In this document: one piece after another, positions 3,943 through 39,734 of the stretch
How the letters are laid out: the number at the start of each line of letters is the position of its first letter
How positions within the stretch are numbered: the first letter of the stretch is position 1
DNA from: Patescibacteria group bacterium
GTDB taxonomy: Bacteria > Patescibacteriota > Patescibacteriia > Patescibacteriales > UBA12465
Direction of reading: 5' to 3'
DNA length: 64,000 bases
NCBI GenBank assembly: GCA_041661685.1
Contig: JBAZTY010000003.1
Coordinates: 69,550 to 133,549, forward strand
Position numbers and translations under genes: made by a program
The notes under the pieces: generated by a model
Seen by the model: the letters and a program-made list of their open reading frames with translations, nothing else
Databases searched by the model: none
What the model was told of the DNA's origin: nothing

Positions 3943-5343
3943 CTATTTTATAATATCTACCAGCTCATCTAAGTTCTTAATTTTGCTCAGCTGCAATTTT
4001 CCCCCTTTAACATCAACATTGGGAATAATCGCGCTCAAAAATCCTAATCGTTCCGCCTCCTGCAGGCGCGCCTCTAGCTTGAAGACATTGCGCACTTCCC
4101 CGCCCAAGCCCACTTCCCCGAGAACTATGGTCCGGCGATCGAAATCTTTATTAAGATGCGAAGAAATAATCGCGGTACAGGCCGCCAGATCTAAAGCTGG
4201 ATCACTTATCTTCAAGCCGCCAATAACGTTCAGGATGATATCTTGAGCCGTTAAATTTATCTTCGTCCGTTTAGTTATGACCGCGCTCAGTACCTGCAAA
4301 CGATTCAGGTCGAAGCCGCTGGTCTTCCTCTGCGGATAGCCGAAAACCGTCTTAGTCGCTAAGGCTTGGAGGTCAGCCAAAAACGGACGCGTGCCCTCGA
4401 TGACGCAGCCGATAGCCGAGCCGGAAACTTTTTCGCCGCTAGTCTCGACGAAGATCAGGCTGGGGTTTTTCACTTCCTTAAAGCCCGTTCCGGTCATTTC
4501 CAAGACGCCTAGTTCATTGACCGAACCGAAGCGATTCTTGGCCGCGCGCAATAAGCAATAATTATTATTCGTCTCATTTTCCAAATACAAAACCGTGTCC
4601 ACGATATGTTCTAAAGATTTCGGTCCGGCGATAGAGCCGTCCTTAGTGATATGCCCGACGAGGAAAACCGCGATATTATTCTCCTTGGCTAATTCCAAGA
4701 ATTTGATGGCGGCCGCGCGGATCTGCGAAATCCCGCCCGCTTCCGCCGGAATCAGGCTGGAATAGACCGTCTGGATAGAATCAACGATGAGTATTCCCGG
4801 AGATAATTTCAAGACTGAAGCGCAAATCTTCTCGACGTTAGTTTCAGAAATGAATTTAAGATTCTCAATATTGCAATTCAAGCGATCCAAACGGGATTTT
4901 ACTTGAGCGGCCGATTCTTCGCCGCTGACATAGATTGCCGCCTGCTTTTTTCCAAGCGCGCTAGCAATCTGAGCGACTAAAGTAGATTTCCCGATTCCCG
5001 GTTCACCGCTTAATAAGACTAGTGATCCCGGCACTAAGCCGCCGCCTAAAACGCGATCGATTTCGCTGATTCCCGTCTGAAAACGCTCTAAAGAAGAAGC
5101 TTTTATCGATACTAGATCGATTACTTCCGCGCCGCCGAGCTTCTTGACCGCTTCTTTCTTCTCGGACTTAGAATCGGTCACCTGTTCTCCTAGAGTTCCC
5201 CAGGAGCCGCATTCTGAACAACGCCCACTCCATTTCAGGAATTGGGCGTCGCAATTAGAGCAGACGAAGATTGTTTTGATATTTCCTGGCATATTCTGAA
5301 AAGCCTCGCTAAGCGAAGCCACGTATTTTATTATTTCTCCCAA
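3943..5343 (-). CDS. radA: DNA repair protein RadA/Sms
   Basis: 466 aa. N-terminal C4 zinc finger (CSNCDAQF...CSECGSW), RecA-like Walker A (GEPGIGKST) and C-terminal Lon-protease-like domain. Confidence 0.9.
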   Translation of the reverse strand: MGEIIKYVASLSEAFQNMPGNIKTIFVCSNCDAQFLKWSGRCSECGSWGTLGEQVTDSKSEKKEAVKKLGGAEVIDLVSIKASSLERFQTGISEIDRVLGGGLVPGSLVLLSGEPGIGKSTLVAQIASALGKKQAAIYVSGEESAAQVKSRLDRLNCNIENLKFISETNVEKICASVLKLSPGILIVDSIQTVYSSLIPAEAGGISQIRAAAIKFLELAKENNIAVFLVGHITKDGSIAGPKSLEHIVDTVLYLENETNNNYCLLRAAKNRFGSVNELGVLEMTGTGFKEVKNPSLIFVETSGEKVSGSAIGCVIEGTRPFLADLQALATKTVFGYPQRKTSGFDLNRLQVLSAVITKRTKINLTAQDIILNVIGGLKISDPALDLAACTAIISSHLNKDFDRRTIVLGEVGLGGEVRNVFKLEARLQEAERLGFLSAIIPNVDVKGGKLQLSKIKNLDELVDIIK

Positions 5344-5948
5344 TAGGCTTTATCCATCAGCCATTCGCCATTAACCTTTAAAAAACTGAGATCCAATTTT
5401 TGAGTAAATGGCTCGCCGCCGCCGATTTTTTCCGTGCTTTCGCGGCGTTCCGTCGTGACTATTATCTCGGCCGTACCAGCCTTATCATCAAAGCTCTTTA
5501 CTTCCGTCGTCAGCGCCTTGGCCGTAATGCCATAATAAGAATCAGACTTGGCGCTCGCTTTTTGTTCAGCGACATATTTATCGGCCCAGGCCTGCAGGCT
5601 GGCCGTCATATAAATCTTCAGATCGGTAAAATTGCCGTAATCGGATTGGGTCGAATAAGAGCCGAGGCGCTCCGCATAAGATTTGGAGCGCTGCGCTAAA
5701 TCGGTAGCGTTGACAGTATGGGTCGCCTCTTTAGTGACATCATACTGGGTATAATTGCGGGGCTGGTCGCTCGGAGTCGTCGTTCCCTTCTCTTCGCCCG
5801 CCGGTAATTGGCTAGTCGGGGTATCAGCCGGAAGCAAAGGCTCTTCGACGGCCGCTTTTTTCATGAAGACGAAATAGATGATGGCCACTATGACTAATAG
5901 TCCGAGAAGGACAAATAGGAGGCCGATGGTTTTACGGTTGGTTTGCAT
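5331..5948 (-). CDS. Hypothetical bitopic membrane protein: N-terminal TM plus an extracytoplasmic domain of about 170 aa. Candidate VirB8-like component (inference).
   Basis: 205 aa. Single N-terminal TM (IGLLFVLLGLLVIVAIIYFVF), then a Pro/Thr-rich linker and a compact soluble domain. Sits directly downstream of the VirB4-like gene. Confidence 0.4.
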   Translation of the reverse strand: MQTNRKTIGLLFVLLGLLVIVAIIYFVFMKKAAVEEPLLPADTPTSQLPAGEEKGTTTPSDQPRNYTQYDVTKEATHTVNATDLAQRSKSYAERLGSYSTQSDYGNFTDLKIYMTASLQAWADKYVAEQKASAKSDSYYGITAKALTTEVKSFDDKAGTAEIIVTTERRESTEKIGGGEPFTQKLDLSFLKVNGEWLMDKAYWEK

Positions 5949-5986
5949 ATTTATTTTTAATATTTATTTTCAAATTAATCTCGTCT

Positions 5987-7885
5987 TTATGCACTCGCTT
6001 CTTCCTGCCGGCTTTCATCGAATTCCTTCTTGGCTTCTTCGAGCTCAAGCAGCTGGCGCGGATCGGAAGTAATCAGCTGGTCTTCGGTGTAAGACGCGAC
6101 CGCTTTCATAGCCACGTGCTTATTGCCCGCGAAGAAAATGCCTTCGCCGACGCCGCATTCGAGCAACAGATATTTCTCACCTTCAGTTAGCATGAAAGTC
6201 TTCTGGATCAAGTCGATAGCCGCCGGAGACTGCTTAAATAATAATTGCAAAGAAGAATTATTAACGATCGCCTGGCCGTAAGGAGAGGTCAAGAAGTCAT
6301 TAACGTCCTGCGTAATAGTCGTGACGCCCAAATAATATTTACGGCAACGTTTAACGAGAGCGAAGATGAACTTAGCCGAATCTTCGTGCTGCATCATCCA
6401 CCAAGCTTCATCAATGACTAGGATGCGCTTCTTCATCTCGCTACGAACGACGTTCCAAATGTAATTGACGATAGTATAAATAGCAATCGGGCGGAGTTCG
6501 TCTTCCAAGTCGCGGACCGAGAAACAGACGAGCTGATTGCTCATCTCGACGTTAGTCTGGTTATTGAGTAAGCCGGCAAAAGTTCCTTCGGTAAACTTTC
6601 TTAAGCGCAGAGCCAGGTCAGACCCGCCTTCCATACCGTCTAGAATCTGCTCAAAATCGGCCATAATCGGAGCTTCAATCTTTGATAAGTCAGAGTCGGG
6701 AGTAATATCTTTCTTCGCGTAAGTTTCGAGTAACGCGCGATCAACGATAGAATCTTCGTCATAGCTCAGGTTGCCTAACATCAAGCGCACTAAGCCTTTC
6801 AAGGTAATAACGGCGCTGCGGATGATATCTTTGGGCTTGGCTTCTCCGCCGATAGAGCGCGGTAAATCGAACGGGTTAATCTTATTCTCAGAAGACAAGG
6901 AAATATTGATATAGGTGCCGCCGACCGCTTCCGCTAAATGCTTGTATTCATATTCCGGATCAATGACGATGACGTCGGTCCCGAGCATTAAGGAACGCAA
7001 AATTTCTAATTTGATAGCATAGCTCTTACCGGCGCCGGAGGTCGCAAAGACGACAGAGTTAGCATTCTGAAGGCTGAAGCGATCAAAAAGGATAAGGCTG
7101 TTATTATGGCGGTTAATGCCATATAAGATACCTCGGTCGCTCGTGAGTTCGCTGGAGATGAACGGGAAAGAAGAGGCAATTGGGGAAGAATTCATGTTGA
7201 AGGTAATATATAATTCATCGTCCCCTAAAGGCAGGGTGGAATTGAAGCCCTGTTCTGATTGATAATAAACGCGGCGGGAATAAACTAGGCGGGAGCCGAA
7301 AACATCCTCGACCTGATCGCTTAAACGGTCCAGATCTTCAAGTTTATCGGCATAGATGGTGACATACAAAGCGAATTGAAAAAATTTCTCCGTTCCCTGA
7401 GTAAGCGCATCGCGCAAGTATTCAATATCGCGCAAAGCAGTTTCGCGCAATGGGTCGCGGGCGGCTCCCTTCTCTGCGTCAGAAACGATCTGCGCTTCCA
7501 GGGCGCCGACTTTATTCTTAAGTTGCTTCAAGATAATCGCGCTCTTAACTTGATAGAAGAACATCGAGACATCAAAGGTCACGTTCAGATTGATAATCGG
7601 CGCGAACCAGCCGACGGAGATATAGCGCGGATAAGAGACGATGAAGATGGTGCGCAAGAATTTATTGCCCAAGGCGAGATGATTAGCCTCGACCTTGAGG
7701 CTAGCGGGCGCGATAATATCGCGGACGGATAAGACGCCGCGGCGGAAGGCCTTCTCTTCTTCGATGATTTCCCGAGTCAATTCCGGGTTCTCCTCGATTG
7801 GGTGCGCCACGGGCTTAACCCCGATGGTAATCGGGGTATTGAGGCCTATCTTGGCCTTTTCTTCTTTTTTGCTGAAATCAATCAT
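5987..7885 (-). CDS. virB4: VirB4/TrbE/TraC-family conjugative ATPase, ATPase portion; N-terminal domain is in the upstream in-frame ORF
   Basis: 632 aa. Walker A VVFATSGAGKSYAI and Walker B/DEAW-type ILVIDEAWWMM. Architecture of T4SS VirB4 ATPases. Confidence 0.75.
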   Translation of the reverse strand: MIDFSKKEEKAKIGLNTPITIGVKPVAHPIEENPELTREIIEEEKAFRRGVLSVRDIIAPASLKVEANHLALGNKFLRTIFIVSYPRYISVGWFAPIINLNVTFDVSMFFYQVKSAIILKQLKNKVGALEAQIVSDAEKGAARDPLRETALRDIEYLRDALTQGTEKFFQFALYVTIYADKLEDLDRLSDQVEDVFGSRLVYSRRVYYQSEQGFNSTLPLGDDELYITFNMNSSPIASSFPFISSELTSDRGILYGINRHNNSLILFDRFSLQNANSVVFATSGAGKSYAIKLEILRSLMLGTDVIVIDPEYEYKHLAEAVGGTYINISLSSENKINPFDLPRSIGGEAKPKDIIRSAVITLKGLVRLMLGNLSYDEDSIVDRALLETYAKKDITPDSDLSKIEAPIMADFEQILDGMEGGSDLALRLRKFTEGTFAGLLNNQTNVEMSNQLVCFSVRDLEDELRPIAIYTIVNYIWNVVRSEMKKRILVIDEAWWMMQHEDSAKFIFALVKRCRKYYLGVTTITQDVNDFLTSPYGQAIVNNSSLQLLFKQSPAAIDLIQKTFMLTEGEKYLLLECGVGEGIFFAGNKHVAMKAVASYTEDQLITSDPRQLLELEEAKKEFDESRQEEASA

Positions 7886-7891
7886 ATTAGT

Positions 7892-8572
7892 TTATTTCTC
7901 TACCCTGAGCTTATCTAAATCGACTAATTCCTGATTCTGAGAGGTTTCTGGATTATATGTTTTATAATAAAGCTCAATTAAACTCTGGGTATCTAAGCGG
8001 GCCACGGCGACACCGAGAGATTCTAAGCCACCGGTAACGCTATCGATGCGGCGATCGAGCATCTCCTGATAATTCTTAAAAGTCTTGTCCTTGAGCTTAA
8101 TAACGGTCGCTGGCTTAAGCGCTTCGCTCAATAAGCTCATGAAGCCTTTATGCTTATCGGTCAGGGGATCATAAGGCACAATAACATAGAAACGCTTATT
8201 CATAATCTTGCCCAGCGAGGTCAATTCCTTGATGTATTCAATATAGTCGGCAGTCTGAACTTTCAATAATTTATTCATCTGCTCCTTCTCTTTGTTCTTT
8301 AAGTATTCCAAATAATTATTAATATCTAACTCGCGAGACTGGATAACAATCTGAAGCGTGAAAGTCAGGTTATTTAAGAAGCGGACATAAGAATCAATGA
8401 CTGCATTCTGTTCGTCTTCGCTCTTGAGCGCGAAATTAATACTGGAAACAAGAAGCACGGCGCGCAAAGTGCCGTCCTTCATCACGACGGTGTTATCCTT
8501 AATCTCGGCAATATTCAAATATTGCTGAGTGGAGGCGCTTATTTTATTCTTAGCCAAGCCTTTTTCTGACAT
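7892..8572 (-). CDS. VirB4-family N-terminal domain encoded as a separate ORF (split virB4)
   Basis: 226 aa. The motif ...DGTLRAVLLVSSINFALKSEDEQNAVIDSYVRFLNNL resembles the N-terminal region of Gram-positive VirB4 homologues. It is separated from the ATPase ORF by TAA plus 2 codons, in the same frame. Confidence 0.5.
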   Translation of the reverse strand: MSEKGLAKNKISASTQQYLNIAEIKDNTVVMKDGTLRAVLLVSSINFALKSEDEQNAVIDSYVRFLNNLTFTLQIVIQSRELDINNYLEYLKNKEKEQMNKLLKVQTADYIEYIKELTSLGKIMNKRFYVIVPYDPLTDKHKGFMSLLSEALKPATVIKLKDKTFKNYQEMLDRRIDSVTGGLESLGVAVARLDTQSLIELYYKTYNPETSQNQELVDLDKLRVEK

Positions 8573-8591
8573 AATTAAAATTTATCCTAGT

Positions 8592-9011
8592 TTATTCTCC
8601 TTTATAGCGTCCTTTGGTATCAACGACGAGCGCCAATTCGGCCAAGCGCGATTTCTTATACATTTTCGGAGCGACTATCGGCGCGACGGCCTTGACTTCA
8701 ATATTCGTTTCGCCGATTTCAGCAGCCATGATCCGATTATTCCATACTCTTATTCCGGGACGGCGCAAAGTCTGAAAAGCATTAAGCATAAAGAGATGGA
8801 AGGGGCGGCCGTTTATCTTAACGAAGGCGAATAGAGCAGCAAAGACGAGCGTCACGATACCGACGGTCAAGAACAAGGTAAAATCGAACAACTTGTAACT
8901 GATGCCGATGATAACGGCAGCGCCGAGAATAATCATGAATTGGCGCACGGTCAGAGGGCCGATAATCTTATTTTCGACGTCGATGAATTGAGGAACGGTG
9001 AACTGCTGCAT
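8592..9011 (-). CDS. PrgI/VirB3-like small membrane protein of T4SS
   Basis: 139 aa. DVENKIIGPLTVRQFMIILGAAVIIG followed by two TM helices. Position immediately upstream of virB4 is typical for VirB3/PrgI. Confidence 0.5.
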   Translation of the reverse strand: MQQFTVPQFIDVENKIIGPLTVRQFMIILGAAVIIGISYKLFDFTLFLTVGIVTLVFAALFAFVKINGRPFHLFMLNAFQTLRRPGIRVWNNRIMAAEIGETNIEVKAVAPIVAPKMYKKSRLAELALVVDTKGRYKGE

Positions 9012-9016
9012 ATATC

Positions 9017-10486
9017 TTAAAAAACTAACTTGCTATTTAAACTGACAATCGCTTCAATCTCATCCATGCTCAGATATTCCTGATTAGCAGCCTTGCGAGC
9101 TTCAGCTATCTGTTTCAGGGGCTGGCCTTTCGCGATTGCTTCTTGACCTAGACGCAGGTATAAACGGCTAACCGGACTCTGACGCCAAGCGCGAACGCCA
9201 GCAACCATCTTATCATAACCATCTTTCTCTAATAATTTTATTTTCGCGAAAACCTTAGAAGTTATTTCGGCTGGAGTCGTGCCGAGACGGCGGAAATTAA
9301 TTACATCCAAAAATTGCAATTCCTCAATCGGACCCATGACTTTCGGCATTGGCTTGATATCATGCATCTGCGGATGAGCGGCGGAGGAAGCAAGCGCTTG
9401 CTTGCCGGCTAAAGTACGGGCGGCAGCCATAGAAACTGGAGGCGTTGAAATAATCTTAGCGGCCGGAATAGCTGGAGCGAATTTAGGCGTAACAGGCGCA
9501 ACGGCTACAACTGGCGCGACTTCTTTATGCCCGCCAAAAAATTTCGTAAAGGCAGATTCATGCTTAACTGGAGCGATTTTAGGGGAAACAGGCGATATTT
9601 TCGGAGTGATTGGAACAATCGGAACGACCGGAGATACTTTCGGGGCGGTCGGAACAACAGGGGCTGGCGCAATCGGCTTAATTTCCGCAACTGGCTTATT
9701 CAAAACGACTGACTTAATTTCGGCTTTAACTTCCGGCTTAGGCAAATCTAACTGCGCCTCCGGCTTGGCTAATTCATGCTTCGTATCTAAAGGCGCTGGC
9801 ACGACAGACTTAGTCTCTCCTTTAGCTAGCGCTTGTTTTAAATTATATTCAGAACTTACCGGCGCAGCCTTATCAGCGCCGCCGATAATCTTATCTAATC
9901 GCGTCACCGGCGGCATGGAAACTGGAGCAGCTTGAGTAGTGACGGCTGGAGTAATCAATCCTTTAGAAATCCTGGTATCGCAGATCTTTAGGACGCGATC
10001 AATCTCCTCCGGGCTCAGATTCAGGCCTCCGATCTTAACGTCCTTAGATAAAGTATTACGCGTATCTATCTTACTCCTGATGCCGCGCGCGTACGTAGAA
10101 ACGATATTCTTAAAGCGGCTGATAGCGACAGCACTCGGCAGGACCAGACCCGCCTCTTTAATGACAACTTCAATATCCTTATCAAGATCTAAGGCGCGAA
10201 TCTCAGAAGTCAGTCCTAAATAATCAGCCATAGGCGCGAAGATCTTTTCCTTCAATTCTTTAACGAGCTGAGCGGCTGTTTCCGGGGTTAATAATAATTC
10301 TCCGGTCAAATAAGCTGGCAAATCCGAAAATTTCAGGCTCTTAACCATCAGTTTCATGATCACGATAGCTAAATCAACTTTATATTTCGTTTCTAATTCG
10401 GAAATAAGCGCCATCGCGGACGGCGAAGAAACCTGATCGCGCAGGTTTTTCGGAAGATTGTTGAATTGTTGTAAATAGTCGAACAT
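9017..10486 (-). CDS. Hypothetical protein with a central Pro/Val/Ala/Lys-rich low-complexity repeat region
   Basis: 489 aa with an N-terminal globular region. The central region (PVVPIVPITPKISPVSPKIAPV...) is encoded by imperfect direct repeats in the DNA, about 9470-9800. The C-terminal domain is conserved-looking. No TM helix. Confidence 0.5.
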   Translation of the reverse strand: MFDYLQQFNNLPKNLRDQVSSPSAMALISELETKYKVDLAIVIMKLMVKSLKFSDLPAYLTGELLLTPETAAQLVKELKEKIFAPMADYLGLTSEIRALDLDKDIEVVIKEAGLVLPSAVAISRFKNIVSTYARGIRSKIDTRNTLSKDVKIGGLNLSPEEIDRVLKICDTRISKGLITPAVTTQAAPVSMPPVTRLDKIIGGADKAAPVSSEYNLKQALAKGETKSVVPAPLDTKHELAKPEAQLDLPKPEVKAEIKSVVLNKPVAEIKPIAPAPVVPTAPKVSPVVPIVPITPKISPVSPKIAPVKHESAFTKFFGGHKEVAPVVAVAPVTPKFAPAIPAAKIISTPPVSMAAARTLAGKQALASSAAHPQMHDIKPMPKVMGPIEELQFLDVINFRRLGTTPAEITSKVFAKIKLLEKDGYDKMVAGVRAWRQSPVSRLYLRLGQEAIAKGQPLKQIAEARKAANQEYLSMDEIEAIVSLNSKLVF

Positions 10487-10536: not shown

Positions 10537-11475
10537 CTAGAGAGTCGTTATCGGCCGGCTCTGAGTTATATAGAATTTGCCCTGTTTATAGGCCCATTCG
10601 ATGTCGCAGGGGAATTTATAATGCTTCTCGATACCGGCGCATATCTTGGCTAGTTCTACTATCTGGCGGCCATTCAATTTCTGCTTGGACTGTCCCGATT
10701 TAGCAATCGGAACCCATTTTGTTCCGCCGGCAGAGCCTTTGATAATCTGCTTGATCTGAGGAGCGACATTGATATCTACAAGAGAATAATCCCGCTTATC
10801 TAAAACATAAGCATCGGGAGTAATCGATCCGGAAACAATCGCTTCGCCCAAGCCATAACCGGCCTCAATTATCATCTGATTCTTGTCCTTCGTCACGGGA
10901 TGGACCGTAAAGGTAATGCCGGATATTTCCGAATCGACCATAACTTGGATCACGACCGCGACGCCGACTTTTGTCTTTAATAATTTCTTCTCGTGGCGAT
11001 AAAAGATGGCGCGGGGCGTGAATAACGAGGACCAGCATTTCTTAACATTGATCAATAGGGTCTTTTCTGTAGTATTTAAATACGTTTCTAATTCTCCGGC
11101 CCAAGAAGCCGACGAAGAATCTTCGGCCGTCGCGCTAGAGCGGACCGCAACGAACTTGGCTTTCAGTTTCTTAAAATCGCTGACAATATCTTTTTCTAAA
11201 TCAACTGGCATCTTGGCGGCGGCAATTAAGTTGCGAATTTTTGCGGAAGCGCCGTCGACGGAATTGATATCTTTATAATTTACTTTCTTTAGAATCGCTT
11301 CTAATTCTTGCGTTAGGTCAGTTTCAGCGAGAAAACGATTAAAAGCTGAGGCTAAAATAACGAAACCCGAAGGAACCGGAATCTTAGCTTTAGTCATTTC
11401 TCCAAGAGAAGCTCCCTTGCCTCCAGCTTCGGCAACAGAATTTTTAGTAATCCGACTAAATGGCTTAATATACAT
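10537..11475 (-). CDS. Stand-alone PEP-synthase / pyruvate-phosphate-dikinase N-terminal ATP-grasp (nucleotide-binding) domain protein
   Basis: 312 aa. Motifs AEAGGKGASLGEM, AVRSSATAEDSSSASWAGELETYLN and CDIEWAYKQGKFYITQSRPIT match the PPDK_N domain of PpsA and rifampin phosphotransferase. It has no phosphohistidine domain and no PEP-binding TIM-barrel domain. Confidence 0.8.
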   Translation of the reverse strand: MYIKPFSRITKNSVAEAGGKGASLGEMTKAKIPVPSGFVILASAFNRFLAETDLTQELEAILKKVNYKDINSVDGASAKIRNLIAAAKMPVDLEKDIVSDFKKLKAKFVAVRSSATAEDSSSASWAGELETYLNTTEKTLLINVKKCWSSLFTPRAIFYRHEKKLLKTKVGVAVVIQVMVDSEISGITFTVHPVTKDKNQMIIEAGYGLGEAIVSGSITPDAYVLDKRDYSLVDINVAPQIKQIIKGSAGGTKWVPIAKSGQSKQKLNGRQIVELAKICAGIEKHYKFPCDIEWAYKQGKFYITQSRPITTL

Positions 11476-11546
11476 ATCATTATTATTTACTTATATTAAT
11501 ATTAGCATAAAATAACCAAAAAATGTAATTAATCAGACTTAAATTA

Positions 11547-11575
11547 TTGACAAGATTACAATAATATTATAAAAT
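11547..11575 (+). promoter_or_regulatory. Sigma70-like promoter for the histidine-phosphatase gene (TTGACA, 15-17 nt spacer, TATAAA/TAAAAT)
   Basis: TTGACA at 11547-11552 with an AT-rich -10 at 11568-11575. The start codon is at 11656. Confidence 0.4.
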
Positions 11576-11655
11576 ATTAGAAATATTTAGAACTTTAATA
11601 ACAAACAAATCACCTCATAAACCTCTGGTCCCGTAGTTAACGGGTCTATTACTCG

Positions 11656-12255
11656 ATGAAAACTTTAGTAATAATCCGTCACGGACGGAAAGACGAAGAT
11701 GGAACTTTGGTCGATAAGGATCAGCTCGCTGAGATTGAAAACATCGGAATCGCCGGCTTGAATGATTTAGTCAAAAAACATCAAGGACTAGTCATCTTTC
11801 ATTTAGGTACCGCTATCGAAAGGACGGGGCAAACCATAAAAGCCTACGAAAGACATCTCGATATATCTAACGCGATTAATTCTTTCGGCGGCTACTTGCC
11901 GGCTGATGCCCGCTTAGGAAGCAATAAGATTTTTAAAGAATTCAGCGAGAATCCCGAAATCGTCAAAGAAGCGGAAAGGACTACTTGGTTCAATGCTTTT
12001 AGGAGATATAATCCGAAATTCATCGAGAAGATACAAATCAACATGCTCGATGCGATTACTGATATATTCTCGCGTGTCGATGACGGCAGCTTGGTTATCA
12101 GCGCTGGCCATACGCCCATGATCGAATGGCTCGCTCTCGGCATTGACGAGAACGACCATAAAATTTCTTGCAAAATTAAACTTAAGGAATTGACCGGCTT
12201 CATCTTTACTGAAGACAAGGGGCGCATCCAAGTTACAAGGACTATCGGGTTCTAA
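11656..12255 (+). CDS. Histidine phosphatase superfamily protein (SixA/phosphoglycerate-mutase-like; RHG motif)
   Basis: 199 aa. N-terminal IIRHGRK (catalytic RHG), ERTGQT (conserved Arg) and AGHTPMIEW (second catalytic His). Encoded convergently to the swivel-domain paralogs. Confidence 0.7.
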   Translation: MKTLVIIRHGRKDEDGTLVDKDQLAEIENIGIAGLNDLVKKHQGLVIFHLGTAIERTGQTIKAYERHLDISNAINSFGGYLPADARLGSNKIFKEFSENPEIVKEAERTTWFNAFRRYNPKFIEKIQINMLDAITDIFSRVDDGSLVISAGHTPMIEWLALGIDENDHKISCKIKLKELTGFIFTEDKGRIQVTRTIGF

Positions 12256-12281
12256 ATGAACCGAATTAAAGAAATTAAAGA

Positions 12282-12310
12282 AACCGACACCAAAAGTGCC
12301 GGTTTTTTAT
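12282..12310. terminator. Bidirectional terminator between the histidine phosphatase gene and paralog A
   Basis: 9-bp stem AACCGACAC/GTGCCGGTT with one mismatch, followed by a T-run; preceded by an A-rich stretch. Confidence 0.5.
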
Positions 12311-12311
12311 T

Positions 12312-14207
12312 TTATTTTATTATCCTCACTATTCCTTTATCCGCATCGACTTCGACGAGGTCGCCATCTTTCAGGACTTTAGTCGCGATCCTGGTGGCGA
12401 TGACGCAAGGCACGTTCATTTCACGAGCGACAATAGCCGCATGCGAAGTTACGCCGCCTTGGTCGGTCACGAAAGCTCCGGCTTTTTTCATAGCCGGCAA
12501 TAAATCCGGCTGCGTCGAGATAGAAACGAGGATATCCCCCTTCTTCATCTTTTCCATATCGCGGATAACATTAACGATCCGAACGATCCCCTTGGCTTGT
12601 CCGCGGCAACCGCATTGCCCTTTCAGCTCTGAAACTTCCCTGCTCTCGTCTTTCTGGATATATTTCTTGATTATCTGCTCGGCTGCACGGCCGCTATAAT
12701 AAACTTCGGTGTCTTTGGCCGTATAATACAAGCTGAGCTTAGCGCGAGATTTTATCTCTTCCTTGTCCGATTGATGATCGAACAGAGCTGCTTTTATCTC
12801 CTTCGAAGTCATGAATCTCGTTTCTTTCAGGCTCAAACCAATACGCCGAGCTATCTCCTCTAAGAAGAAAGTCGTCTTATAAAGAGCGAAGAGCTGGGCA
12901 TAGCGGCGATATATCTTCGTCACCATGAAATCGCCCCAGGCACCGAAAAAACGAGTCGTCTTTTTTGATAGGCTTATTTTTTTGATGAGAGCCTGTTTAT
13001 CTGCCAGTACCATCTTTATCTTTTTCTCTTGGTCTCCATAGGTTTTCTTGAGGTTATTGTCTCCATTAACCAAGCGGACTAACTCTTTCAGATAATGCTC
13101 AAAATTATAGACGCCCTGCTCTTCAGTATAAATGAACTTGGTATAGAAATACTTGGCATAATGCTTCTGCAGATCATTCAATATTTTCTTATTGATCCGG
13201 TTCTTGAGAGTCCGGACGACCTCCTCGAATTTATCCTCATACTCTTTACTATGAGTATACAGGCCGAGAAATTTAACATCTTCTTCTTTGAACTTCCTGA
13301 ATAATTCCTTGAAAATGGAAAATTGCTTAGGATCAGACTGGACAGCAATACCGATCTTAATCAGAGCATCTTGCTCTTCTTTCAAGAGCGAATCCTGTTC
13401 CGGCTGAGTAAGCAGGGCGAGATATTCCTCAATTTTCGCAGCCGGAGCCTTCAGTTCTCTTAGCATCTGCTTGCCGCGATTAGTCAGATTATCGCCGAAC
13501 ATGTCAGCGGCCACCGGGATCCAGCCCCATTGATAATATTCCTGATGCACTTCTTCATGCTCCTTATAGTAGCGCCACAGCTTCTCTGAAGATACCTTAT
13601 CCAGACCGCTTTCAGGAATCTTAGCGACCGTAGCGACTAGCTTATCGGCGAAAAGTCTTATCTGAGAATTAACCTCTTCCATGAAATCGACGTCGCTCTC
13701 GAACTTGTCGACTAAATGGTCGCCTACGGCTTGCGCGTCCTGCTTATCAAAATAGAACCAGAGATGATAGCCCCGATAAACGCAAGCTTGATGCTGATAA
13801 GCTTTCCCGCCTGGCTGAGCGAATTGATTCGTAAAGCAATAAAAAGGGATGGCCATGAACCAGGGGTTAGCGTTGATGATCTCTTCGGCTAACAGCCATT
13901 CACGATTAAATATCTTCTCGACTTCTGCGCCTTTATTCTTCTGGAAAAGATTGATAAGCTCCGGCCCGATCGCATAATCGGTATTGAAGGAATAGCTTTT
14001 CTTCCTATTTTTAAGTTCTTGCGCGATTATGCCTTCCTTAATCAGCTTATCCAGTTCGCGGGTGATATTGGCCGCATCTTTCTTGACAGCCTCTCTTATT
14101 TCTAAAAAATAAAAAGACCGCTTCGGGCTGGCGGTCAGAAGCATCAATATCTCATAAGCGGTCTGCGATTTGAATAGATTCTTCATATATATATGTCTTG
14201 AAGACAA
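12312..14207 (-). CDS. PEP-utilizing-enzyme mobile (phosphohistidine swivel) domain protein, paralog A. Has an N-terminal winged-helix-like segment and a large helical domain.
   Basis: 631 aa. The C-terminus GGVTSHAAIVAREMNVPCVIATRIATKVLKDGDLVEVDADKGIVRIIK matches the PEP-utilizer swivel domain with the catalytic His. The N-terminus (TAYEILMLLTASPKRSFYFLEIREAV...ITRELDKLIKEGII) is wHTH-like. Confidence 0.7.
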   Translation of the reverse strand: MSSRHIYMKNLFKSQTAYEILMLLTASPKRSFYFLEIREAVKKDAANITRELDKLIKEGIIAQELKNRKKSYSFNTDYAIGPELINLFQKNKGAEVEKIFNREWLLAEEIINANPWFMAIPFYCFTNQFAQPGGKAYQHQACVYRGYHLWFYFDKQDAQAVGDHLVDKFESDVDFMEEVNSQIRLFADKLVATVAKIPESGLDKVSSEKLWRYYKEHEEVHQEYYQWGWIPVAADMFGDNLTNRGKQMLRELKAPAAKIEEYLALLTQPEQDSLLKEEQDALIKIGIAVQSDPKQFSIFKELFRKFKEEDVKFLGLYTHSKEYEDKFEEVVRTLKNRINKKILNDLQKHYAKYFYTKFIYTEEQGVYNFEHYLKELVRLVNGDNNLKKTYGDQEKKIKMVLADKQALIKKISLSKKTTRFFGAWGDFMVTKIYRRYAQLFALYKTTFFLEEIARRIGLSLKETRFMTSKEIKAALFDHQSDKEEIKSRAKLSLYYTAKDTEVYYSGRAAEQIIKKYIQKDESREVSELKGQCGCRGQAKGIVRIVNVIRDMEKMKKGDILVSISTQPDLLPAMKKAGAFVTDQGGVTSHAAIVAREMNVPCVIATRIATKVLKDGDLVEVDADKGIVRIIK

Positions 14208-14251
14208 TAATTATTGTCTATAAGACAATATTATCACGGAAAATAATCCTG

Positions 14252-15838
14252 TCAACCTTTTTTCTTCTTCATTAAACGCACTATTCCCTGCTCCGCGTCC
14301 ATCTCTACCGAATCGCCATCGCGGAGAACTTTAGTCGCCACCTTAGTGCCGACGATACACGGAATCCTTAATTCTCTGGAAACGATAGCAGCATGGCAGG
14401 TAATGCCGCCAGCGTCAGTAATGATTGCCGCCGCCCTCTTCATAGCCGGAACCAAATCCGGCGTAGTTGCTATTGAGACCAAGATATCGCCCTTCTTCAT
14501 CTTAGGAATATCGCTAGGAATATTAATGACTTTGATCGCGCCCCTAGCCTTGCCAGGAAAAGCACAGTCACCCGACAGTGAATTGACATTCTTGATATTC
14601 TCTCTGATGATATTCAGGCGAGCTGATATCTTTCTCGCTTCTGCTCCGCTCACATTCAGATCATCCTTGAAATCCCCGACAGAATAATACAGATTGAACT
14701 TATATCTTTCATTCAAGATAGCAACATCAAAATTATTGCCCAAGAGGAGCTCCTTGAACTCATGCGGATAAAGATAGCGGACTTGGCGGATAGCCAGATA
14801 GCGGCGGCGGCCGATTTCCTTGAATAATCTCTCGACTATCGACCAGCTATGAAACATGGAATCCTTTCTAGCCCCCTTGGTAAACACGAGATTCCTAGCA
14901 AAAGCTAATATCTCTTCGTGCTTCTTATCTATCTTGAGGTCGCGGACTAATTTCTTCTGCCTATTCAATATTTCTTGCCGACCAGCTTTCACGCCTTGCA
15001 GGGACTTCTTGGGATTCACACCCTGCCTGACCAAACTTGATAAGATATCGATAAAATACTCTCTTCCCCAAGACGGCCCGACCATGCCATAACCGAGCCA
15101 GCCGAAAGCTTTGGCATGTCGGCTAATCATCAAATCTAATCTCTTATCTAATTTTGACAATTCCCTGTCAATATCTTCGACGCCATGCTTGGCAAAGATT
15201 TTCTTCAAAGCCGGCTTACTAATGATGTGCCCCAATATCGACAGAAGTTGTTTATATTCTTCAGAGGCCTTAGCGTCCCTAGTCGGCGTCGTGAGAGTAG
15301 AGAAAGCTTCACCCAAAGAATAGTCTTGACCGGCAATCCTATCTTTGAGGTAATTCCTCAGATATTTAGAGAGGATATTTTCCCCAAAATCAGCCGCCGT
15401 CTGCATCCAATGAAGGACATGCAAGCGGCTATAGATAGCATAGTATTCATCATAAACCTTGAATAATTCCTTGTCGGAGAGCTTGGTTAAATTTATCTTC
15501 TTCAAGCTGTCAGAGGCGCGATATAGTTCGCCTTCTGCTTTTTCAAGATCTTTAAAATAACGATCGCCCCATTTCTGGTTCTTCTTAATATTCTCCAATA
15601 GCTCCAAGCCGATCTCTTTGAATTCCTGCCGAGCCACTAGCAACTGGCAGATATTATCTTGAAAGATCATTGCCAGGCATGGCATCTTTCTTTTAAAGCC
15701 ATAACTTTTAAGAAACCTATTCGCCCGGGCCGTATTCCAAGCAATACCAGCCATCATTGGATAATAATTCGGCATTTCCTCCATACAGAAGAGTTCTTGG
15801 CGGCTGACGGAAATATTTTTACGCTTACGGCTGTTCAT
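14252..15838 (-). CDS. PEP-utilizing-enzyme mobile domain protein, paralog B
   Basis: 528 aa. C-terminus GGITCHAAIVSRELRIPCIVGTKVATKVLRDGDSVEMDAEQGIVRL. The N-terminal helical domain shares the FGWLxY...G motif with paralog C. Confidence 0.7.
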   Translation of the reverse strand: MNSRKRKNISVSRQELFCMEEMPNYYPMMAGIAWNTARANRFLKSYGFKRKMPCLAMIFQDNICQLLVARQEFKEIGLELLENIKKNQKWGDRYFKDLEKAEGELYRASDSLKKINLTKLSDKELFKVYDEYYAIYSRLHVLHWMQTAADFGENILSKYLRNYLKDRIAGQDYSLGEAFSTLTTPTRDAKASEEYKQLLSILGHIISKPALKKIFAKHGVEDIDRELSKLDKRLDLMISRHAKAFGWLGYGMVGPSWGREYFIDILSSLVRQGVNPKKSLQGVKAGRQEILNRQKKLVRDLKIDKKHEEILAFARNLVFTKGARKDSMFHSWSIVERLFKEIGRRRYLAIRQVRYLYPHEFKELLLGNNFDVAILNERYKFNLYYSVGDFKDDLNVSGAEARKISARLNIIRENIKNVNSLSGDCAFPGKARGAIKVINIPSDIPKMKKGDILVSIATTPDLVPAMKRAAAIITDAGGITCHAAIVSRELRIPCIVGTKVATKVLRDGDSVEMDAEQGIVRLMKKKKG

Positions 15839-15851
15839 ATGTTTAGCAAAA

Positions 15852-17363
15852 TTATCTTATCCTCTTTATCACTTTTACTATTCCTTTTCTGGCGTCGACT
15901 TCTACTATATCGCCGTCTTTCAAAATTCGCGTAGCGATTTTTGTGCCGATAATGCAGGGAATCTTCATCTCCCTAGAGACGATAGCGGCATGGCAGGTGA
16001 CTCCGCCGGCATCAGTAATGATAGCGCTAGCGCGATTCATGGCCGGCACCAATGACGGATTAGTAGAAAAACTAACTAGAATATCACCTTTGTTAAATTT
16101 CTTAATATCGGCAACAGCATTGATAATCTTGACTGCGCCCCGCACGCGACCAGGAAAAGATACTTGGCCGGTAAAAATATCCACATTAGTCTTGATGAGT
16201 TTCGGCATCTGCATATATCTAACCATACTTTCAGCTTCTTTCCCTACCAAGACACGGCTTTTACCCTTAATAGTTACGAAAGCGGAAAGATGGAATCTCT
16301 CGGGCAATTCTTCAGCTCTCGGCCGGCGCCCAGAACGCAAGAATCCTCTAATTTCTTCTGGGGTCAAATATTTCGCTTGTGTCTGAGAACAGAAAAGACG
16401 GCGCCCTAATTCTGTAAACCATGAGCTCATCGCATAATTCAGATAATATATCTGCATCTCTTTGCGCAATTCCTTGATAAAAGAAAATTCGCGCAATAGG
16501 CGGATGTCATGACGGGCGGAAACCGATAACGAACTTTCAATCCTCTTCTGCCAAGCGCCTAATTTTTCCCTCTCTCGCTTATTAGCCGACAGGATCTTTC
16601 CCGCTTTATCTCCTGCCCTGCCTTTCAATAATTCGAAATAATACTCTGGTCCGGCAGCCTGGCCGTCATAATAATATTGCAGCCAGCCGAAGCGCCTAGA
16701 CAATGATTGCAGCTGGCGGCGCTGAGAAATATTATCCAGGTTAGCAAGCTTCGAAGCTCTTTTAAAGGCGCGCCATAGCTTCGGCTGTCTCTGCCAGCGC
16801 GCCAATAATCCCAAAGCTGCCTCAGCTTCACGGCGGACATAGGTGGCTTTGAGAGGAGTTAATAAGCGGCTAAAAATTACGCCAGGATCGCCAAAAGCAG
16901 ATAGCGAGCCGCGAATATTTTTCTCTACGAACACAGAATATTTATTATCGCCCATGTCCACATATTGCGGGATAGCAGACCAATCAGCTATCTCCAGCCA
17001 GATACGACAAAAATCGTCATAAATCTTGCTTAATCCACGCGGTGACATCTTTTTTAAATCTTTGTGCTTGAGGCTAGAGACAAATCGTTTAATTTTAGCA
17101 AAACCAATATAATGCTGCCGCACTATTTCTTCCGCCAAAGTTGAGTCAGCCTGCAAGCGCGGCAAAAAATAAGCGCCAGCGGCGGAAAATTGGCTAGCAT
17201 CCGGAGCCCAGAGCGCCTTACCTTCCTGAAAAATGAATATAGAATCGATAAATATCTTCCCTTTGGTCTTCAAACGCAGATCATAAAAAGTCTTATTCCA
17301 AAGGAGCCAAGGATGCGGCGGCACGTTATAATCTTCCGTAAAGAGAGTAAATTTTTTGGACAT
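15852..17363 (-). CDS. PEP-utilizing-enzyme mobile domain protein, paralog C
   Basis: 503 aa. C-terminus GGVTCHAAIVSREMKIPCIIGTKIATRILKDGDIVEVDARKGIVKVIK. N-terminal domain is homologous to paralog B. Confidence 0.7.
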   Translation of the reverse strand: MSKKFTLFTEDYNVPPHPWLLWNKTFYDLRLKTKGKIFIDSIFIFQEGKALWAPDASQFSAAGAYFLPRLQADSTLAEEIVRQHYIGFAKIKRFVSSLKHKDLKKMSPRGLSKIYDDFCRIWLEIADWSAIPQYVDMGDNKYSVFVEKNIRGSLSAFGDPGVIFSRLLTPLKATYVRREAEAALGLLARWQRQPKLWRAFKRASKLANLDNISQRRQLQSLSRRFGWLQYYYDGQAAGPEYYFELLKGRAGDKAGKILSANKREREKLGAWQKRIESSLSVSARHDIRLLREFSFIKELRKEMQIYYLNYAMSSWFTELGRRLFCSQTQAKYLTPEEIRGFLRSGRRPRAEELPERFHLSAFVTIKGKSRVLVGKEAESMVRYMQMPKLIKTNVDIFTGQVSFPGRVRGAVKIINAVADIKKFNKGDILVSFSTNPSLVPAMNRASAIITDAGGVTCHAAIVSREMKIPCIIGTKIATRILKDGDIVEVDARKGIVKVIKRIR

Positions 17364-17375
17364 ATTTTAATATTC

Positions 17376-17786
17376 CTAAACTCGGCAAAAACTCGACTTA
17401 TACTTTTCCGGATGATGAGCCTTTAGCCTTTTTATCTTACAGAAAAAGCGAAATCCGGCGATTTCGCTTTTTAATTGCGGCAAATCAACTTGCTGATCAT
17501 AGCCTAAGCAGATTATCTCCGGACGATATTTTTTCAGGATAAGCCAGCGGTTCTTAAGATTTCCTAAAACAGCCCTCCCTGTTATACCCAGCTCTTTAAG
17601 GGCGCGTCTAACCTTACGCTGGCGAGTCTTCTCGTCATCTTGCGGCGCACGTTTCTTAATCGCCAAGACATTCTTGTCGCGAGCAATTATGACTATCAGC
17701 TCATCGCCAAAAAGGCGGGCCTGTTTGAAATAATCCAAGTGCCCCGGATGGAGATTATCGAATGTTCCGAAAGTCATGACGCGCAT
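17376..17786 (-). CDS. Cytidylyltransferase-family nucleotidyltransferase (TagD/RibL-like, HxGH motif)
   Basis: 136 aa. TFGTFDNLHPGHLDYFKQARLFGDELIVIIARD matches the (H/T)xGH nucleotidyltransferase fold. Ends 13 nt upstream of paralog C. Confidence 0.6.
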   Translation of the reverse strand: MRVMTFGTFDNLHPGHLDYFKQARLFGDELIVIIARDKNVLAIKKRAPQDDEKTRQRKVRRALKELGITGRAVLGNLKNRWLILKKYRPEIICLGYDQQVDLPQLKSEIAGFRFFCKIKRLKAHHPEKYKSSFCRV

Positions 17787-17834
17787 AATAGAGACAAAAC
17801 ACCACTCTTCACAGAGCGGTGTTTTTATTGTTCT

Positions 17835-18986
17835 TTATTTTATCGCCTTTTTCAATGCTGCGACCTTATCAGTCTTTTCCCATCTGAATTCTGGGCGACC
17901 GAAATGGCCGTAAGCCGCGGTCTTCAAGAAGACCGGCTTTCTTAATTCTAAGTGATCAATAATCGCTTTCGGGCGGAAATCAAAGACCTTCTCGATAGCC
18001 TTCAAGATATCTTCTTCCGCATATTTATTCGTGCCAAAAGTGTCGATATAGATGCCGACCGGCTTAGCGACCCCAATCGCATAAGCGACCTGGACCTCGC
18101 ATTTATCGGCTAATCCAGCCGCAACGACGTTCTTAGCCGCATAGCGAGCCATATAAGCGCCGGAGCGGTCGACTTTGGACGAATCCTTGCCCGAGAAGCA
18201 GCCGCCGCCATGACGCGCGACGCCGCCATAGGTATCGACAATGATCTTGCGGCCAGTCAGACCGGTATCGGCCGCCGGACCGCCGAAAGTAAAGGCGCCA
18301 GTAGAATTGATATAGACTTTAGTCTTCTTGTCCATTAATTTGCCTAAAACCGGCTTAATGACTTTCGCTAAGATATCGGCACGGACCTTAGAAAGCTTAA
18401 CCTTCTCGCTATGGCAAGCGGCGATAACGACAGTTTCGACGCGCTTAGCAATGCCGTCATGATATTCGACGGTCACCTGGCTTTTTCCGTCCGGTCTTAA
18501 ATAAGGCAGGGTTTTATTCTTGCGGACTTCAGCTAATCTAAAAGTTAATTTATGAGCCAAGGTTATCGGCAAAGGCATGAGCTCCTTGGTCTCGTTAGTT
18601 GCGAAGCCATACATCAAACCTTGGTCACCAGCTCCCTGCTCCTTGAATTCGCCTGCGCCCTCATCGACGCCTTGCGCGATTTCCGCGCTCTGCGCGTGAA
18701 GAGATGACATGATACCGACGCTGTCGCAGTCGAAGCCGGATTCAGCGCCGTTATAGCCGATGCTCTTCAAAACCTTGCGGACAATATCGTCAACTTGAAT
18801 ATACTCTTTAGTTCTGACTTCTCCGCCAACAACAATCATGCCGTTAGTGGCGAATGATTCCACGGCCGCATGGCTGTGCGGGTCTCTCTTTAACATCTCG
18901 TCTAAGATGCCATCGGAAATCTGATCGCAGACCTTATCCGGATGTCCTTCGGTAACAGATTCCGAAGTGATTAATTTTATGTTCAT
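17835..18986 (-). CDS. metK: S-adenosylmethionine synthetase
   Basis: 383 aa. GHPDKVCDQISD and the typical MetK domain order. Confidence 0.9.
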   Translation of the reverse strand: MNIKLITSESVTEGHPDKVCDQISDGILDEMLKRDPHSHAAVESFATNGMIVVGGEVRTKEYIQVDDIVRKVLKSIGYNGAESGFDCDSVGIMSSLHAQSAEIAQGVDEGAGEFKEQGAGDQGLMYGFATNETKELMPLPITLAHKLTFRLAEVRKNKTLPYLRPDGKSQVTVEYHDGIAKRVETVVIAACHSEKVKLSKVRADILAKVIKPVLGKLMDKKTKVYINSTGAFTFGGPAADTGLTGRKIIVDTYGGVARHGGGCFSGKDSSKVDRSGAYMARYAAKNVVAAGLADKCEVQVAYAIGVAKPVGIYIDTFGTNKYAEEDILKAIEKVFDFRPKAIIDHLELRKPVFLKTAAYGHFGRPEFRWEKTDKVAALKKAIK

Positions 18987-19043
18987 ATTTTTTGTTCCGC
19001 TGTGGTAACGGAGATAATTAAGTTATGTCCTGCTATCAAACTT

Positions 19044-20300: not shown

Positions 20301-20329
20301 ATTTATTTAAAATATTTTTAAGCTCTTAT

Positions 20330-24852: not shown

Positions 24853-25530
24853 TTATTGAAAAATACTCTTAAGCAAATCCCACAGCGCCTCTCCAATTAT
24901 TTTGACCGACGACACCGGATCAAATATAATGGCGCTGATTATGTAAATGACGCTAGCCACTGCTATCAGGAGAAACAAACATCCTAAATCGCAACCGATC
25001 AATCCCCATATTTCCATCGAAGGCTTAACCGGCGGTTTCGCGTCCGCGGCGGCCCCGGCAACTTTTCCGGCCACGCCTCCGATCGCTCCGGCAGCAGCGG
25101 CGCCGCCTCCCGGTATCATATCTTTCCATTCATCCCCTAAATTACAAAAGAATTTCTCGCCAAATATCTGATTCAGAAAAAAGGCATGAATATTTATCCA
25201 GATAAGGGTACACCCGAAACTAGTAATAAGATTAAGCCAGGACTGTTGTAATAATTTAGAGGCCCCTTGTTTCAGCGGCGAGGGACTAGACCCGCTTTCC
25301 CCGTCTGACCCGGGCGTTGCGCCGGCTTTCTTTTTCTCTGCTAGAACCGCCTCACGCAAAGACGTAGCGCCTTGGCCATCCGGACCGCCGGCCCTCTGTG
25401 CTTCTCTCAACCGGGAAGCTTTCTCGGACCAAGCAGATTCCCTAGCAGAATCATAAGCGCCCCAAGCGGTTTCCGCATTTCTTTCATCCGGTTCTTGTTG
25501 TTGCGCTAATAGCTGTTCATCAAGGCTCAT
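24853..25530 (-). CDS. Hypothetical membrane protein: Gly/Ala-rich, C-terminal TM
   Basis: 225 aa. Acidic N-terminus, GGAAAAGAIGGVAGKVAGAAADA low-complexity stretch, and a C-terminal hydrophobic helix. Confidence 0.35.
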   Translation of the reverse strand: MSLDEQLLAQQQEPDERNAETAWGAYDSARESAWSEKASRLREAQRAGGPDGQGATSLREAVLAEKKKAGATPGSDGESGSSPSPLKQGASKLLQQSWLNLITSFGCTLIWINIHAFFLNQIFGEKFFCNLGDEWKDMIPGGGAAAAGAIGGVAGKVAGAAADAKPPVKPSMEIWGLIGCDLGCLFLLIAVASVIYIISAIIFDPVSSVKIIGEALWDLLKSIFQ

Positions 25531-39728: not shown

Positions 39729-39734
39729 AGATTA

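Follow-up and report, generated by a model that had tools for sequence, protein, structure and literature searches.

A chromosomal type IV secretion cluster, very probably of the Patescibacteria type, beside radA in a Falkowbacteria-like bacterium and split by a metabolic insertion

In a 64,000-nucleotide stretch of contig JBAZTY010000003.1 from a Patescibacteria group bacterium (assembly GCA_041661685.1; hereafter the window), five open reading frames (ORFs) are closely packed on the minus strand at positions 5331-10486, separated by spacers of 5, 19, 6 and 38 nt and followed on the same strand by radA. Read along the minus strand, the gene order is p489–PrgI–TrsD–VirB4–p205–radA, with the following features:

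9017..10486, minus strand: p489, a cytoplasmic accessory protein of 489 aa (predicted structure, synteny, no transmembrane segment)
8592..9011, minus strand: PrgI/VirB3-like small membrane protein of 139 aa with two transmembrane segments (PF12666 above the gathering score)
7892..8572, minus strand: TrsD-like protein of 226 aa, a detached N-terminal part of VirB4 (NCBIfam matches)
5987..7885, minus strand: VirB4 ATPase of 632 aa, central and C-terminal P-loop part, MPF-FATA-like (NF045971 above the cutoff)
5331..5948, minus strand: p205, a bitopic VirB8-like protein of 205 aa with a transmembrane helix, a Thr/Pro-rich linker and a predicted C-terminal NTF2-type domain (AlphaFold2 and Foldseek)
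3943..5343, minus strand: radA/sms, the last gene of the co-oriented run (TIGR00416, 508 bits)

The interval 5331-10486 very probably represents the core of a chromosomal type IV secretion system (T4SS) of the Patescibacteria type, Gram-positive-like and derived from the mating-pair-formation class MPF-FATA, in a Falkowbacteria-like bacterium of the candidate phyla radiation. The five-gene module is operon-like in its own right. A first-pass annotation of the window, made without database searches, had proposed consecutive minus-strand T4SS core genes in this interval next to radA; the ORFs lie exactly there, the PrgI and VirB4 profiles passed their thresholds, and radA directly follows the gene for the 205-aa protein. 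VirB4 is also not the sole T4SS-related gene of the window, as PrgI and the pilin-domain proteins described below pass their thresholds as well.

To this module, a comparison of 80 species-level genome loci was applied; the loci were fetched around homologues of p205, and the window proteins were mapped on them by tblastn. The genomes compared are Falkowbacteria-like Patescibacteria, and gene shortfalls mostly reflect contig ends. VirB4 was present in 79 loci, radA in 73, TrsD in 70, PrgI in 66 (adjoining TrsD/VirB4) and p489 in 65, and the order p489–PrgI–TrsD–VirB4–p205–radA is constant in related loci, with short gaps. With recurrence in 65-79 of 80 independent genomes at species level, the five-gene arrangement is well beyond chance. 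The same order is found in three distant loci (L081, L083 and L084); in some of them a DsbA gene precedes radA and recG follows it. The p205 protein of the window is 100% identical to WC719_03785, a protein of a metagenome-assembled genome labelled 'Patescibacteria group bacterium', and its named relatives belong to Candidatus Falkowbacteria, a lineage that we take to fall within the GTDB class ABY1.

The 632-aa protein matches the NCBIfam model NF045971 (VirB4-like CD1110) with 359.9 bits against a cutoff of 325, over model positions 179-734 of 752, as well as NF045975, the VirB4 model of a Mycoplasma integrative and conjugative element (ICE), with 276 bits and PF19044 with 98.5 bits (E 4.4e-28; gathering score 25.8). 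Walker A (SGAGKS) and Walker B (LVIDEAW) motifs, read in the translation of 5987-7885, are intact, and VirB4 is 80-99% identical over 79 loci. This polypeptide is devoid of the N-terminal membrane/VirB3-interacting domain, and that part forms the separate 226-aa TrsD-like protein, encoded immediately upstream of virB4. The 226-aa protein matches NF041427 (TrsD/TraD) with E 6.4e-9 and 35.9 bits, under the curated cutoff of 200, and NF045975 (VirB4_plasma) with E 2.8e-12 at positions 96-239 of the 894-position model; it aligns to positions 5-135 of the VirB4 model TIGR00929, and its homologues in the three distant loci bear precomputed matches to PF26593 (TraC-like). The two proteins cover consecutive, non-overlapping stretches of VirB4 models. 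Since the 226-aa protein fits the N-terminal model parts and the 632-aa protein the rest, VirB4 is encoded here as a genuine two-gene split; separate TrsD and VirB4 proteins are a known variant of pGO1 and of Patescibacteria (PMC12102498). A read-through or frameshift joining TrsD to VirB4 was considered and rejected: the two ORFs of the window are in frame with each other, with TAA and 6 nt between them, while across relatives only 23 of 70 loci have them in the same frame, which is the chance level, and the stops are mostly TAA. An ATGA overlap of the two genes occurs in 10 of the 70 loci. The first-pass annotation had set the PrgI-like gene immediately before VirB4; the TrsD-like gene in fact sits between them.

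The best NCBIfam matches of VirB4 and TrsD are conjugative proteins, namely CD1110 of CTn2, Mbov_0397 of a Mycoplasma ICE and TrsD of pGO1, and one pilin of the window weakly matches a Mycoplasma ICE pilin-like protein. These matches would suit an ICE, remnant or active, of which the module is the mating-pair-formation part, with relaxase, type IV coupling protein (T4CP) and integrase lying outside the window. The same chromosomal neighbours (radA, recG), however, accompany the module in about 80 species-level genomes, with protein divergence tracking the genomes. Pfam scans of the window's main ORFs (about 130 aa or longer) found no relaxase, T4CP or integrase domain, in agreement with the first-pass annotation, and the window holds neither a G+C discontinuity nor an att-like tRNA junction. 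The surrounding genes are core genes (recG, radA, ksgA, leuS, recJ, lepA, murJ and rpoBC), and in Patescibacteria relaxases were found in just 103 genomes (PMC12102498). The ICE explanation was therefore rejected on synteny, composition and the lack of mobility genes in the window; it is largely refuted by synteny, and we regard it as almost certainly wrong. The locus is a vertically inherited chromosomal cluster and not a mobile element, which supports the first-pass view of a chromosomal system rather than a conjugative element.

The 139-aa protein scores 36.7 bits on PrgI (PF12666; gathering score 27), and its two hydrophobic helices lie at residues ~20-45 and ~46-64. At the other end of the VirB4 pair, the p205 gene lies directly after virB4 in 79 of the 80 loci, and p205 is 33-93% identical across related loci. 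An AlphaFold2 model built on 41 homologues (mean predicted local distance difference test score, pLDDT, 83.5) comprises a transmembrane helix at residues 2-29, a disordered Thr/Pro-rich linker and three helices packed on four long strands. In a Foldseek search of the PDB its best match was the VirB8 domain of PrgL from pCF10 (7aed, E 6e-5), followed by CagV (6iqt, target-normalised template-modelling score, or TM-score, 0.68-0.71); further matches include TrwG/VirB8 (R388, Bartonella), TraE (pKM101), TraH (5aiw, pIP501), TcpC (3ub1) and Agrobacterium tumefaciens VirB8 (2cc3), with entries 8rtd, 4nhf and 5i97 also among the top matches. Target-normalised TM-scores against VirB8-type structures are 0.55-0.71. 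The first-pass annotation had named a bitopic VirB8-like candidate after VirB4, and both its topology, with one N-terminal transmembrane helix, and its predicted VirB8/NTF2-type fold bear this out. The fold alone is not specific, because other NTF2-like proteins are interspersed among the matches; taken together, fold, bitopic topology and the fixed place after virB4 make a VirB8-like subunit a sound reading of the model. The putative VirB8-fold assignment of the p205 family is new here and a modest gain.

ECOD entry e4ec6D1 presumably derives from pIP501 TraM, a VirB8-like protein. For Southlakia epibionticum, a published survey states that no structural VirB8 homologue was found (PMC12102498), yet SEML1_0012, within the T4SS cluster of this organism, is listed as NTF2-like with that ECOD entry and was scored non-essential (PMC10633639, Table S2). 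VirB8 homologues are few in the survey, and almost all of them lie in ABY1 (PMC12102498).

The first gene of the module encodes p489, for which AlphaFold2 predicts all-helical domains at residues 1-176 and 380-489 (pLDDT above 90), joined by a disordered linker of about 200 aa (pLDDT below 50), the Pro/Val/Lys/Ala-rich middle third of the protein. No transmembrane segment was predicted, no match was found in Pfam, NCBIfam or PHROG, a Pfam scan of 41 family members gave nothing consistent, and Foldseek returned no PDB fold match at E ≤ 0.001. The Pro/Val/Lys-rich linker that had been noted earlier is thus present, and the description of p489 as a repeat protein is not upheld: Tandem Repeats Finder detects none in 9000-10500, and residues 177-371 have pLDDT below 50, the segment being a low-complexity disordered linker. 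In each of the 65 loci with tblastn matches to both genes, and likewise in L081, L083 and L084, p489 immediately precedes PrgI. A profile search among 1.84 billion cluster representatives gave 2582 members at E ≤ 1e-3, counted as representatives of 50%-identity clusters; p489 thus belongs to a large, uncharacterised family.

Upstream of p489, the window holds a block of metabolic genes and, beyond it, further genes that in relatives are part of the same cluster:

10537..21286, minus strand: metabolic gene block, context only (Pfam; about 10.8 kb between p489 and p323)
21273..22244, minus strand: p323, a cytoplasmic accessory protein of 323 aa (synteny, no transmembrane segment)
22231..24831, minus strand: extended VirB6-like polytopic membrane protein of 866 aa (topology, sub-threshold TrbL match, synteny)
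24853..25530, minus strand: p225, a membrane protein with two transmembrane segments and a disordered N-terminus (topology, synteny)
26313..34538, minus strand: giant Cys-rich secreted protein of 2741 aa, a candidate surface or adhesin component (signal-like N-terminus, synteny)

The 866-aa protein has a signal peptide, about six transmembrane helices in residues 1-330 and then a hydrophilic C-terminal domain of about 500 aa. Its match to TrbL (PF04610) has E 0.004 at full length and E 7e-4 with 19.8 bits for the N-domain (gathering score 25.9); five of 12 homologues give sub-threshold TrbL matches in the same region, and some bear precomputed PF19590. In 30 related loci the gene shares a cluster with VirB4 and precedes p323/p489, accompanied by p225 in 22, p323 in 20 and the giant gene in 10. 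The protein fits the 'extended VirB6' type and is weakly TrbL-like. The VirB6-like gene of the first-pass annotation is thus supported in its polytopic nature and linkage, while its TrbL matches are sub-threshold only.

In relatives p323 lies directly between the VirB6-like gene and p489; it adjoins p489 in 16 of the 20 loci with any p323 match, and also in L081, L083 and L084. It has no predicted transmembrane segment and no profile match in Pfam, PHROG or NCBIfam. That p323 and p489 are paralogues was considered and rejected (BLASTP E 0.53). The identification of both as conserved cluster members is new here and of modest added value. The p225 gene adjoins the VirB6-like gene in the 22 loci named above and in L084; its transmembrane segments lie at residues ~101-119 and ~185-203, and it has no profile matches in Pfam or NCBIfam. 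Homologues of the giant protein, which has an N-terminal signal-like sequence and a weak CBM_4_9 match only, are encoded upstream of p225/VirB6 in the 10 loci, and the L084 counterpart has 2775 aa. The giant gene heads the ancestral cluster, and its product may serve in contact with a host.

Between p225 and the giant gene, p161 (25756-26241, minus strand, 161 aa) carries a lipoprotein-type signal (…LVSC). None of the 80 related loci holds a homologue of it, and relatives have other small genes at the spot (two 139-aa genes in L084), so that this is a variable slot in the cluster. An NCBIfam scan of the VirB6-like protein, p323, p225 and p161 found nothing.

The full order in relatives is giant–p225–VirB6-like–p323–p489–PrgI–TrsD–VirB4–p205–radA. 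VirB6-like/p323 is immediately upstream of p489 in 31 loci (16 by p323 match and 15 inferred from the position of the VirB6-like gene), whereas in the window, as in 16-17 related loci, p489 adjoins a block whose first gene is PPDK_N-only. In a neighbour-joining tree of VirB4 all deep branches have the contiguous arrangement, and the 'dispersed' layout is therefore secondary: one ancestral cluster was split by a metabolic insertion of about 10.8 kb and is not truly dispersed. The first-pass annotation had described a dispersed, non-operonic set, which goes too far, the module being operon-like and the ancestral state one contiguous cluster. Showing this split is a new result here, of modest added value.

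The metabolic block encodes the PPDK_N-only protein, three paralogues with a PEP-utilizer domain, a cytidylyltransferase, metK, ahcY and pfkB, and contains an unannotated plus-strand ORF at 11656-12255. Within it, 10537-17363 (minus strand) encodes the PPDK_N-only protein of 312 aa and the three paralogues of 631, 528 and 503 aa, whose sole recognised domain is the C-terminal PEP-utilizers 'mobile' domain, with large unannotated N-terminal regions. This segment looks like a disassembled and expanded system similar to pyruvate phosphate dikinase (PPDK) or phosphoenolpyruvate (PEP) synthase.

VirB2-like genes had been noted at first pass in the por operon, and both of them carry PF18895 above its gathering score:

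42622..43587, plus strand: VirB2-type T4SS pilin-domain protein of 321 aa, between porA and porB (PF18895)
44475..45716, plus strand: T4SS pilin-domain protein fused to a VanY/M15 D-Ala-D-Ala peptidase, 413 aa (PF18895 and PF02557)

The 321-aa pilin matches PF18895 (T4SS_pilin) with 34.8 bits and the 413-aa fusion with 29.6 bits (gathering score 26.6), each with a transmembrane hairpin, at residues 94-145 and 162-215, respectively. The fusion also matches VanY (PF02557) with 34.3 bits (gathering score 25) and the D-Ala-D-Ala dipeptidase model NF007557 with E 1.6e-10, and it is a plausible candidate wall remodeller that could substitute for VirB1. The operon at 40560-45716 (plus strand) encodes porG, porD, porA and porB (pyruvate:ferredoxin oxidoreductase), with the pilin gene between porA and porB and the fusion gene following; both pilin proteins have Cys-rich extra domains. 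It is an odd home for secretion pilins and suggests co-expression with central metabolism. The 321-aa pilin also weakly matches NF045849, the Mbov_0395 pilin-like conjugal transfer protein of the Mycoplasma ICE (E 1.4e-4), and TrsD and VirB4 match well Mbov_0397 VirB4, the neighbour of Mbov_0395. These matches give a hint, at odds with what is usually stated, that the MPF-FATA lineage may have VirB2-like pilins of its own.

The several pilin-domain genes and the 2741-aa Cys-rich secreted protein, linked to the cluster in relatives, could also be read as parts of an organelle for pili or adhesion only, in which VirB2-type pili or display of the giant protein would serve attachment and no substrate would be translocated. 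The Pfam scans of the window's main ORFs found no coupling protein, and reviews stress the unusual pilin arrays of Patescibacteria T4SSs (PMC12857230). We find this explanation improbable: the window's pilin genes lie 32-35 kb from the cluster, in the por operon, adhesion is already credited to type IV pili in Saccharibacteria (PMC10633639, PMC12857230), and conservation of a full VirB3/4/6/8 translocon with two cytoplasmic accessory proteins suggests traffic from the cytoplasm to the outside.

At the downstream end of the cluster, the true start of radA is likely the ATG at 5292, and a terminator-like hairpin lies at 3899-3915, just past its stop codon. For a promoter of the module's own, a consensus scan found no more sites than in shuffled sequence; an extended -10-like sequence, TGTTAAAAT, was read by eye 8 nt before the p489 ATG. 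Recombination and repair genes are concentrated around the T4SS parts, with recG (951-2987, plus strand), recJ (46187-48025, minus strand) and a gene for an RNase H-like protein (RVT_3; 45778-46185, minus strand) in the same 64 kb as radA. A DsbA/thioredoxin-like gene lies between the VirB8-like gene and radA in L081 (13395-14147) and L084 (13727-14521). The window's own DsbA-like gene is elsewhere (39682-40539, plus strand), and a disulfide-forming partner is plausible, several of the cluster proteins being Cys-rich.

The linkage of radA bears on the direction and nature of the traffic. The gene is on the same strand after the VirB8-like gene in 72 of the 80 loci, usually within 100 nt (a gap of ≤100 nt between high-scoring segment pairs in 66), and remains linked in the distant loci with the DsbA insertion; recG follows about 1 kb beyond radA in the window and also lies beyond it in L084. 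In class ABY1, radA, recG and comF are commonly near virB4 (PMC12102498). Together with the lack of a relaxase or T4CP in the window and weak partial matches of VirB4 to the DNA-import ATPases CedB (E 4e-12) and CedD (E 2e-4), this pattern would be consistent with a DNA-import machine, a reverse T4SS like ComB or Ced that takes up DNA from the host or the environment, with RadA and RecG processing the incoming strand for recombination or nucleotide salvage. The match to CedB, however, is a generic P-loop match of about 70 residues, far under the cutoff, and the cluster proteins show no detectable DNA-binding or nuclease domain. RadA serves recombination in general, and its gene could owe its position to a frozen accident of a compact genome. 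Moreover, competence in Southlakia needs ComEC and type IV pili, and deletion of comEC ends transformation but not viability, whereas the T4SS is essential (PMC10633639, PMC12857230). We consider DNA import unlikely. In a more specific form, the relaxase-less T4SS of ABY1 would be a conduit for DNA import or exchange from the host, with p489, perhaps together with p323, as a new adaptor replacing the coupling protein; this rather improbable proposal would, if true, amount to a third independent case of T4SS-based DNA uptake, next to ComB and Ced. With radA co-oriented and recG close by, a DNA-related role is conceivable but disfavoured, and the fixed linkage of radA offers a concrete, testable DNA-handling hypothesis.

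Because no relaxase or coupling protein lies nearby and Saccharibacteria cannot grow epibiotically without a homologous system, the machine would most likely act as a contact-dependent conduit to a host cell, for protein or other macromolecules, rather than as a conjugation apparatus. The gene set, predicted folds, topologies and conserved order were computed, and from them we infer the following mechanism. The translocon in the cytoplasmic membrane would consist of the VirB6-like protein, PrgI and the VirB8-like protein. A VirB4 hexamer, docked to PrgI by TrsD, would power pilin extraction, pilus growth and substrate passage, and the PF18895 pilins would build the pilus. The pilin-VanY fusion would stand in for a VirB1 hydrolase in opening the cell wall locally, and contact would be the task of the giant secreted protein. 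For the cytoplasmic p489 and p323, whose genes are fixed between VirB6 and VirB3, we propose a lineage-specific accessory or recruitment role; given the size of the p489 family, the two are obvious candidates for the missing substrate-recruitment function.

Several points weigh against this interpretation and the subunit assignments behind it. The VirB8 call for p205 was made from a predicted structure, its Foldseek E-values are modest (6e-5 to 1e-3), and the NTF2-like fold is widespread, with ARC6/PARC6, Tim44 and SnoaL-type proteins interspersed in the match list; p205 has no Pfam or NCBIfam match at E ≤ 1, VirB8 (PF04335) included, and a profile of its 41 homologues found no VirB8 among PDB sequences, only chance-level matches or none. 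The VirB6 assignment stays below every curated threshold, and a profile of the N-domain of the VirB6-like protein has no match among PDB sequences. Without detectable homology or a fold match for p489 and p323, their roles are guessed from gene position. Essentiality is known only in a Saccharibacterium, which belongs to a different class (PMC10633639). A VirD4 or relaxase gene could also lie outside the window; many VirD4-like genes of Patescibacteria lie far from virB4 (PMC12102498).

The system itself was already described in 2023-2025, and the window is a well-resolved example of it rather than a discovery. Wang et al. (2023) showed that the T4SS cluster of Southlakia epibionticum is essential and has no coupling protein or relaxase; it comprises PrgI, VirB4, VirB6-like proteins whose C-terminal domains are large, pilin arrays and an NTF2-like protein (PMC10633639). 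A 2025 review likewise describes an essential T4SS without coupling or relaxase proteins (PMC12857230), and the T4SS of Patescibacteria is the only one known to be essential to its own bearer. In the survey of Quinonero-Coronel et al. (2025), most VirB4 proteins of Patescibacteria group in a single clade with affinity to MPF-FATA, virB4 is accompanied most often by TrsD and frequently by PrgI, VirB6 and VirB2-like pilin arrays, and relaxases are rare (PMC12102498). From the organism and the gene set of TrsD, PrgI and pilins, we infer that the window's VirB4 belongs to this clade.

Among more distant systems, ComB of H. pylori and Ced of Sulfolobales are relaxase-less, T4SS-related DNA-uptake machines and offer a conceptual parallel to the radA/recG linkage of the window; ComB, however, is a diderm VirB2-4/6-10 system, and Ced (CedA/CedB) has only the generic P-loop in common with the window's VirB4. 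The Trs system of the Staphylococcus plasmids pGO1/pSK41 resembles the window in having a separate TrsD ahead of the VirB4 homologue TrsE, but belongs to conjugative plasmids with a relaxase and a T4CP. Trs is the only MPF-FATA subclass with a separate TrsD, and no VirB6 homologue is recognised there (PMC12102498). The Prg/Pcf system of Enterococcus faecalis pCF10, the MPF-FATA prototype, shares with the window the PrgI Pfam family and provides, in PrgL, the best structural match of p205. Its gene order, which we take to be VirB6-like … VirB3-like (PrgI) – VirB4 (PrgJ) … VirB8-like (PrgL), is collinear with that of the window. In contrast, pCF10 is plasmid-borne and conjugative, with a single-chain VirB4, the cell-wall hydrolase PrgK, the T4CP PcfC, the relaxase PcfG and the adhesin PrgB, and has no pilins.

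The closest likeness is to the T4SS of Patescibacteria, as represented by Southlakia SEML1_0006-0019 and by the survey (PMC12102498): these systems share with the window a VirB4 split from a TrsD-like protein, PrgI, a VirB6-like protein of the extended type, a bitopic protein of NTF2-like fold, pilins with PF18895 and a chromosomal location with no relaxase or T4CP nearby, and in ABY1 members also radA and recG near virB4. Southlakia differs in having the pilin array inside the cluster, a longer PrgI (300 aa, extended at the C-terminus), a pair of VirB6-like genes, and genes for lysozyme and peptidase after virB4, whereas the window cluster is without a hydrolase. In the window, the pilins are encoded in the por operon, PrgI has 139 aa, p489 and p323 stand between VirB6 and PrgI, and a 10.8 kb metabolic block splits the cluster. 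The window gives a clean and well-supported parts list for the ABY1/Falkowbacteria version of the T4SS, including p489, p323 and a predicted VirB8-fold subunit.

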